The position numbers and the translations under genes are program-made. A DNA stretch of 24,000 bases from Lactobacillales bacterium. Lineage in GTDB: Bacteria > Bacillota > Bacilli > Lactobacillales > Streptococcaceae. The notes beneath the pieces are model-generated. The model was not told where the DNA came from and ran no database searches. It saw nothing but the letters and a program-made list of their open reading frames with translations. The DNA is taken from contig JAISJD010000044.1 in NCBI GenBank assembly GCA_031261705.1, positions 1-24,000 of the forward strand, read 5' to 3'. This document shows positions 21,060-21,212 of this stretch, piece by piece (position 1 is the first letter of the stretch; each line of letters starts with the position of its first letter).

Positions 21060-21212
21060 TTTTCCACAAGCTATCCACAGGTGTTTTGTGGAAAAAGCAC
21101 TGATTTCACACAAATTCGCTTTTTTCATCCACAAACATGTGGATAACTTTTTTCTGCTTTTACACACCTTCTCAACAAGTTATCCACTTTTTTATCCACA
21201 AGGTGTGGATAA
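21060..21212. promoter_or_regulatory. DnaA-box cluster (3 perfect + 5 one-mismatch boxes)
   Basis: Perfect TTATCCACA/TGTGGATAA at 21138-21146, 21192-21200 and 21204-21212. 8/9 matches at 21060-21068, 21071-21079, 21087-21095, 21125-21133 and 21180-21188. Confidence 0.7.

Follow-up and report, generated by a model that had tools for sequence, protein, structure and literature searches.

Clusters of binding sites for the replication initiator DnaA (DnaA boxes) that lie outside the chromosomal origin (oriC), and the control of nucleotide genes by DnaA, are both already established in bacteria. In Bacillus subtilis, eight regions are bound by DnaA in vivo, and these can be described by an A value, for which the affinities of four boxes in succession are added up and divided by the average gap between them; the eight regions have A values of 0.36-1.64 and are the only ones in the genome above 0.3 (Ishikawa 2007, PMC2533591). 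DnaA-box clusters (DBCs) of this type are usually located near oriC, with yqeG-sda as an exception. The non-oriC clusters of Bacillus precede different genes in different species (Okumura 2011, PMC3245932; Ishikawa 2007, PMC2533591). The present analysis concerns a dense array of DnaA boxes located directly upstream of hpt, the gene for hypoxanthine phosphoribosyltransferase, in a Lactobacillales bacterium of the Streptococcaceae (assembly GCA_031261705.1, contig JAISJD010000044.1, positions 1 to 24,000, hereafter referred to as the window).

In Escherichia coli, DnaA occupies in vivo almost only tandem double boxes placed 2 or 3 bp apart, as established by chromatin immunoprecipitation sequencing (ChIP-seq) and mutagenesis (Stringer, Fitzgerald, Wade 2024, PMC11317965). 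Double boxes are present at 15 of the 16 ChIP-seq regions, which include sites upstream of purH, nrdA and nrdD (PMC11317965). At nrdAB, low levels of DnaA-ATP activate and high levels repress transcription (PMC8203912). The genes at which DnaA acts include nrdAB, nrdD and purH in E. coli and sda, ywlC and yydA in B. subtilis. The E. coli locus datA works together with IHF and stimulates the hydrolysis of DnaA-ATP. IHF is not to be expected in Firmicutes. The mechanisms of datA and of the DBCs differ, as seen from the opposite outcomes of plasmid complementation: a DBC on a multicopy plasmid fails to complement its deletion in B. subtilis, whereas datA on a plasmid does complement (PMC3245932).

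The array upstream of hpt is probably a non-oriC cluster of the B. subtilis DBC type and, at the same time, the upstream region of a putative DnaA-responsive hpt promoter. DnaA binding and both of these functions are what we infer from the sites themselves, their statistics, the geometry of the promoter and the lack of oriC hallmarks.

Methods

DnaA boxes were called by a pattern search of the window on both strands against TTATCCACA, allowing at most one mismatch. A values were calculated with the distance convention reproduced from Table 2 of Ishikawa 2007 and a threshold of 0.3. The search for oriC features considered an array of DnaA-trios (3'-GAT-5' repeats, as defined in PMC8287927) at most 16 bp from a box, followed by an A+T-rich unwinding element. 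For the comparison with relatives, 91 hpt loci were used, comprising 80 genome loci and 11 fetched through Hpt homologues. Metagenome contigs were scanned for TTATCCACNNNNTTATCCACANNNTGTGGATAA, which represents the promoter-proximal three-box module of the cluster, and module loci with at least 1.8 kb of sequence on both sides were treated as well-flanked (42 among the matches listed).

Results and discussion

Density, affinity and arrangement of the boxes

The cluster (21060-21212, 153 bp) consists of three perfect TTATCCACA boxes and five boxes that agree at eight of the nine positions. Reading of the sequence and the pattern search recovered all eight boxes of the initial annotation at the same positions, together with its two head-to-head pairs, ATCCACA-aaca-TGTGGAT and TTATCCACA-agg-TGTGGATAA. 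Three groups of boxes can be distinguished, (+,+,-), (+,-) and (+,+,-), in each of which the inverted box comes last; the spacers measure 2 bp and 3 bp in the direct pairs and 7, 4 and 3 bp in the adjacent inverted pairs. In the group closest to the promoter, a tandem double box with 3-bp spacing is followed after another 3 bp by an inverted perfect box. A direct repeat of 37 nucleotides with 73% identity is also present (21042-21078 versus 21151-21187), and all the five perfect boxes of the window are confined to 842 bp.

Boxes with at most one mismatch number 16 in the whole window as compared with 6.5 expected, and none of the 100 shuffled windows reached 16. A perfect 9-mer had been estimated beforehand to occur less than once per 24 kb; the mean in 300 shuffles was 0.22 (maximum 2), set against five perfect boxes observed. 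Eight boxes with at most one mismatch lie in the 292-bp intergenic region, where shuffled sequences contained 0.10 on average and never more than 2; for a stretch of 153 bp the expectation is about 0.04 boxes (Poisson probability of at least eight, ~1.7e-16). Box density equals the background outside 21.0-22.0 kb. Chance is no explanation for the cluster.

The highest A value in the window is 1.36, obtained for the quadruplet at 21158-21212, and six overlapping quadruplets spanning 21071-21249 exceed 0.3; the best value in 300 shuffled windows was 0.235. The cluster thus has at least four close boxes with A above 0.3, as DBCs have. The two tandem double boxes (21060/21071, 2 bp apart; 21180/21192, 3 bp apart) agree with the arrangement that E. 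coli DnaA occupies. The DnaA reading put forward in the initial annotation is well supported in silico by the A value above the threshold and by the two double boxes; between the two roles proposed there, titration of DnaA and regulation of hpt, the sequence does not discriminate.

The hpt promoter and its surroundings

The gene order in this region is the probable terminator of the hepT operon, the cluster, the hpt promoter, a Shine-Dalgarno sequence (GAGGAG) and hpt, and the cluster fills the whole gap between the terminator and the promoter (Table 1). The operon upstream, on the plus strand, encodes a NusG_II protein, heptaprenyl diphosphate synthase component I (hepS) and a polyprenyl synthase (hepT). 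The -35 element of the predicted promoter begins at 21222 and the last box ends at 21212, and the promoter scan thus agrees with the 10-nt gap reported earlier. Transcription is predicted to start at ~21257, which places the boxes at -197 to -45 and the three-box module at -77 to -45. Location of the boxes within the promoter region is a trait of DnaA-regulated promoters, the promoter being a predicted one in this case. As Rfam gave no family match anywhere in the window, no riboswitch or leader is indicated upstream of hpt. A search of PLSDB with a 500-bp region, as a check for a plasmid origin, gave no match.

Table 1. Positions of the DnaA boxes and of the associated features in the window
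Feature	Position	Strand	Remarks
Polyprenyl synthase, HepT-like	20018..21004	+	Pfam PF00348; best NCBIfam match TIGR02748 (HepT), below cut-off; ends 55 bp before first box
Probable intrinsic terminator of the NusG_II-hepS-hepT operon	21023..21057	+	Hairpin 21023-21048 followed by CTTTTTTTG; fold z-score -1.6, tentative
7/9 box TGTGGATTT	21036-21044		Within the probable terminator upstream of the cluster
Tandem double DnaA box TTTTCCACA-ag-CTATCCACA	21060..21079	+	Starts at 21060 and 21071; both 8/9; 2 bp apart
DnaA box TTTTCCACA, 8/9	21087..21095	-	Inverted relative to the preceding tandem pair; spacer 7 bp
Head-to-head pair TCATCCACA-aaca-TGTGGATAA	21125..21146	+ / -	21125 (+), 8/9; 21138-21146 (-), perfect
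Ninth, weak box TTTTACACA	21158-21166	+	One mismatch to TTATNCACA
Promoter-proximal three-box module TTATCCACT-ttt-TTATCCACA-agg-TGTGGATAA	21180..21212	+ / + / -	21180 (+), 21192-21200 (+), 21204-21212 (-)
Predicted sigma-A promoter of hpt, TTCACA-17 nt-TATAAT	21222..21250	+	11/12 positions match (promoter scan)
Weak box TTATACAAA	21241-21249	-	One mismatch to TTATNCACA; overlaps -10 of the hpt promoter
hpt, hypoxanthine phosphoribosyltransferase, 180 amino acids	21297..21839	+	Pfam PF00156; NCBIfam TIGR01203 equivalog, 215.8 bits versus cut-off 150
Perfect box in hpt coding DNA	21549-21557		Encodes L-S-T; 8/9 versions at the same codons in relatives
8/9 box in hpt coding DNA	21595		
Outlying perfect box	21971-21979	+	Inside a 168-amino-acid open reading frame of no known identity, 21883-22389 (-)

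Proposed mechanism and comparison with the known systems

DnaA, preferably in its ATP form, would bind cooperatively to the two tandem double boxes and their three inverted partners and build a stable multi-protomer complex over -45 to -197 of the hpt promoter. Transcription of hpt would then be sensitive to the level of free DnaA-ATP, and purine salvage would be tied to the replication status of the cell. The nine sites may also keep DnaA from oriC and act as a titration sink, a role compatible with the control of hpt. The position of the strong boxes upstream of the -35 element would suit activation or a dose-dependent dual control, as at nrdAB, while the weak box over the -10 element could permit repression if the oligomer spreads. 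A further proposal, that DnaA took over the direct control of hpt in this Lactobacillales lineage with the same nine-box array serving as a DnaA sink, is advanced tentatively, and the balance of probability is against it.

The locus resembles the B. subtilis DBCs in being intergenic, in having four or more closely spaced boxes whose A value of 1.36 falls within the range of theirs (0.36-1.64) and in its position at or beside a promoter whose downstream gene varies between species. It is unlike them in that hpt is not among the known DBC partners and that the host belongs to an unsampled group of Lactobacillales. A Firmicute host such as this one would, like B. subtilis, be expected to lack SeqA and Hda. 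With nrdAB, nrdD and purH of E. coli the locus shares tandem double boxes that are separated by 2-3 bp and precede the core promoter of a nucleotide-metabolism gene (PMC11317965; PMC8203912). However, those genes carry single double boxes, whereas nine boxes occur here in ~150 bp, and the target here is salvage (hpt) and not de novo synthesis or ribonucleotide reduction, in a different phylum. Like datA, the locus is a non-oriC cluster of high-affinity boxes and could reduce the pool of free or active DnaA.

Occurrence of the three-box module in metagenomes

The module of three boxes was found in at least 120 metagenome contigs (L092-L211), and the observations that follow refer to the matches listed. 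The contigs range from 26% to 66% in G+C content. A dnaA gene lies within 1.5 kb of the module in 34 of the 42 well-flanked loci, and Pfam confirmed DnaA in four and RnpA in one of these 34. The layout of the dnaA loci is constant, the module being placed between dnaA and rpmH-rnpA in the same orientation to dnaA; examples with the exact module are L092 (5935-5967), L094 (325-357) and L124 (3990-4022).

Some of the other eight loci connect the module with genes of replication or nucleotide metabolism. In L183 (3233-3265), the module lies ~100 nt upstream of nrdD, encoding the anaerobic ribonucleotide reductase (1732-3129, minus strand), oriented as it is at hpt in the window and about equally far from the start codon; in L197 (2717-2749), it lies upstream of a gyrA/parC-like gene; and no dnaA gene is within reach of the module in either locus. 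The module is located between metG and tatD in L179, upstream of the gene for trigger factor in L205, next to a DUF932 gene in L176, and by open reading frames with no Pfam match or with domains of unknown function in L122, L161 and L200. No Hpt or HepT homologue was present in any of the 120 module loci among the matches listed. As judged from its sequence contexts, the module is a recurrent DnaA-binding architecture, found mostly in the dnaA promoter/oriC region and occasionally at the promoters of replication or nucleotide genes.

The hpt locus of the window carries a module, 3-nt spacers included, identical to that of the region between rpmH-rnpA and dnaA in the 34 well-flanked loci. The two differ in their surroundings, dnaA being always 5' of the module in the matches listed, whereas hepT takes this position in the window and hpt stands on the rpmH-rnpA side, with neither an adjacent dnaA nor an unwinding element.

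Points against DnaA binding, and the hpt loci of relatives

Several points weigh against a DnaA-bound cluster that controls hpt. DnaA binding is deduced from the nucleotide sequence, and the DnaA protein of the organism itself is not encoded in the 24 kb in view. In E. coli, a single box in guaB is unbound in vivo although it is perfect (PMC11317965), and a match in sequence may therefore mislead by itself. DBC-type clusters are usually close to oriC, and the view here is limited to 24 kb. The inverted pairs also form hairpins, and since the one at 21127-21144, together with its T run, passes a simple terminator scan, a part of the symmetry could serve termination. Finally, conservation of the cluster upstream of hpt in related species, which the initial annotation expected of a functional site, was observed in none of the 91 loci of relatives, including Pilibacter termitis, the Streptococcaceae metagenome-assembled genomes (MAGs) from termite gut and Lactococcus. 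On the data available, the cluster is therefore specific to its lineage, and purifying selection on the site cannot be shown.

The conservation test is low in power because the nearest relative available is only 77% identical in Hpt: this is P. termitis, the best match besides the window itself, followed by the termite-gut Streptococcaceae MAGs and Lactococcus at 71-74%. No A value above 0.3 was found in 87 of the related loci (584 kb); of the four further loci, three gave A values of at most 0.01 and the fourth had too few boxes to be scored. A lineage-specific cluster fits the published mobility of the non-oriC clusters between genes.

Another type of control appears in the Lactococcus-type relatives, in which hpt is a member of the pur operon (purM-purN-...-hpt-purH). 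The consensus PurBox ATTTCCGAACAAT is present upstream of hpt in L082 (5070-5082), L084 (5847-5859), L085 and L088 (both 5846-5858), and a degenerate copy in L089 and L090. Neither a PurBox nor DnaA boxes were detected at hpt in Pilibacter (L081) and in two termite-gut loci (L086, L001), and the window has no PurBox within 400 bp of hpt. The PurR/PurBox system of Lactococcus is thus comparable to the present cluster as a cis element just upstream of the orthologous hpt promoter; it differs in motif and regulator, and in that hpt belongs to the pur operon there and follows hepT here.

The termite-gut metagenome locus L086 shares the NusG_II-hepS-hepT neighbourhood with the window and lacks boxes upstream of hpt. 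Its hepS/hepT coding region (2079-2821) contains four DnaA boxes, including a perfect one (2556), scattered over ~740 bp with A below 0.3, and their positions are not homologous to those of the boxes at 20119 and 20839 of the window. In the two nearest relatives that are named or syntenic, L081 (7632-8817) and L086 (7823-8984), hpt lies 1.3-2 kb from rnpA-yidC, which flank the module in the canonical dnaA loci; from this proximity, hpt could formerly have been near the region upstream of dnaA.

Alternative explanations

The symmetry of the boxes may serve the RNA rather than DnaA, the inverted pairs being intrinsic terminators or insulators against read-through from hepT and their likeness to DnaA boxes incidental; in a variant, bound DnaA would itself act as a roadblock, for which E. 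coli DnaA roadblocks offer a precedent (PMC11317965). The RNA of the pair at 21125-21146 forms a 7-bp hairpin followed by six T (fold -8.2 kcal/mol), it is this hairpin with its TTTTTT that passes the terminator scan, and the hairpins of the cluster fold better than shuffled sequences (z-scores -2.8 to -3.4). However, termination needs neither the exact 9-mer, present five times, nor the direct-repeat pairs, and a T run follows only one of the three hairpins. The stems are weak (-8 to -14 kcal/mol) as compared with -27 kcal/mol at the terminator 21848-21884, and a separate terminator-like hairpin (21023-21057) already stands ahead of the cluster. An explanation in terms of RNA is therefore unlikely, although it survives better than the others considered below.

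Slightly less probable still is a drifting, non-functional relic, derived from a rearranged ancestral origin-side region or from local duplication. Its appeal lies in the lack of conservation in any available relative, in the 37-nt repeat of 73% identity, which suggests internal duplication, and in the distance of 1.3-2 kb between hpt and rnpA-yidC in L081 and L086. On the other hand, an array that has kept its 2-3 bp spacing together with three perfect boxes and five 8/9 boxes is unlike the outcome of drift, and a sequence so near the consensus would bind DnaA whatever its history.

The initial annotation had also considered a different dimeric transcription factor that reads the inverted ATCCACA half-sites as operators, and three inverted pairs are indeed present. 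Since the spacers of these pairs are 7, 4 and 3 bp, they have no fixed geometry; two direct-repeat pairs account for four of the boxes; and the matches extend beyond ATCCACA over the full asymmetric 9-mer, including its TTAT part. No PurBox is present, and the identical module stands next to dnaA across many phyla among the matches listed. The half-sites would also be opposite in direction to those of a Rex-type operator. Such a regulator is very unlikely.

The last alternative is that the cluster is itself the origin of the chromosome displaced from dnaA, either whole or as one of the two halves of a bipartite origin. The features in its favour are the dense array of high-affinity boxes, the presence of the same three-box module beside dnaA in 34 of the 42 well-flanked metagenome loci among the matches listed, and a 27-mer at 20996-21022, 38 bp from the first box, with 89% A+T, a level reached by only 0.04% of the 27-mers of the window. 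This 27-mer overlaps the stop codon of hepT, however, and no DnaA-trio array flanks any of the boxes, the periodic runs near them being T or A homopolymers with no TAG or CTA repeats. The claim of the initial annotation that the cluster is away from any dnaA or dnaN gene holds only for the 24 kb in view, in which Pfam detected neither gene over the 21 kb to the left and the 2.8 kb to the right of the cluster.

The raw GC skew follows gene orientation only. At 4-fold degenerate sites, the fifteen minus-strand genes to the left have a plus-strand skew of -0.19 and the two to the right one of -0.23, with the plus-strand patch near zero; no switch occurs across the cluster, and the sign is the same on both sides. 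These values suggest a single direction of replication, from right to left, over the whole window, with the origin to the right of it, the evidence being moderate owing to the small right-hand sample. The flanking genes on both sides point the wrong way for an origin at the cluster. Within the window the cluster thus lies outside oriC, and identity with oriC, the case that the initial annotation had named as contrary to its reading, is the least probable of the alternatives, as the cluster has no trio array with unwinding element, no skew switch and no dnaA or dnaN in the window.

Significance of the cluster

The literature searches on this point found no paper that links DnaA boxes with hpt and no DnaA regulon study for the Lactobacillales, nor any such cluster in this branch of the order. 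If DnaA binds to the cluster and alters the expression of hpt, purine salvage would join the nucleotide-supply genes under DnaA control, which are nrdAB, nrdD and purH in E. coli and, as proposed, nrd genes in B. subtilis and Caulobacter, and the Lactobacillales would provide an example. It would also represent a clear replacement of the regulator at one gene, with a PurBox on the orthologous hpt of Lactococcus and DnaA boxes here. The level of the initiator would set hypoxanthine/guanine salvage, giving a two-way link between initiation and purine supply that is not known to have been described for hpt in any bacterium. As a titration site, the cluster would be one more lineage-specific DBC, in line with the movement of such clusters between genes and plausible rather than surprising.

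Other features of the window

Small open reading frames overlap the cluster at 21037-21249 (+), 20904-21167 (-) and 21137-21343 (+) and are regarded as spurious, that at 21037 because it has no Shine-Dalgarno sequence. Between the convergent hpt and the 168-amino-acid open reading frame, a perfect 17-bp stem with a 3-nt loop (21848-21884; -27 kcal/mol, z-score -8) is probably a bidirectional terminator.

Farther from the cluster, the minus strand carries a duplicated block (8690-16280) in which a GRDB-like small protein and a phosphotransferase system (PTS) EIIC component occur twice (8690-10618 and 12954-14963); two M42 peptidases separate the copies, and an M20 peptidase lies past them. An isoaspartyl peptidase/asparaginase (7697-8683) and a GntR/UTRA regulator (16333-17061) lie beside the block, which looks like a PTS-linked locus for the uptake and hydrolysis of peptides or modified amino acids. 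The minus-strand gene at 22401-23888 specifies a protein that combines a C39-like peptidase domain with five ChW repeats and DUF5776.

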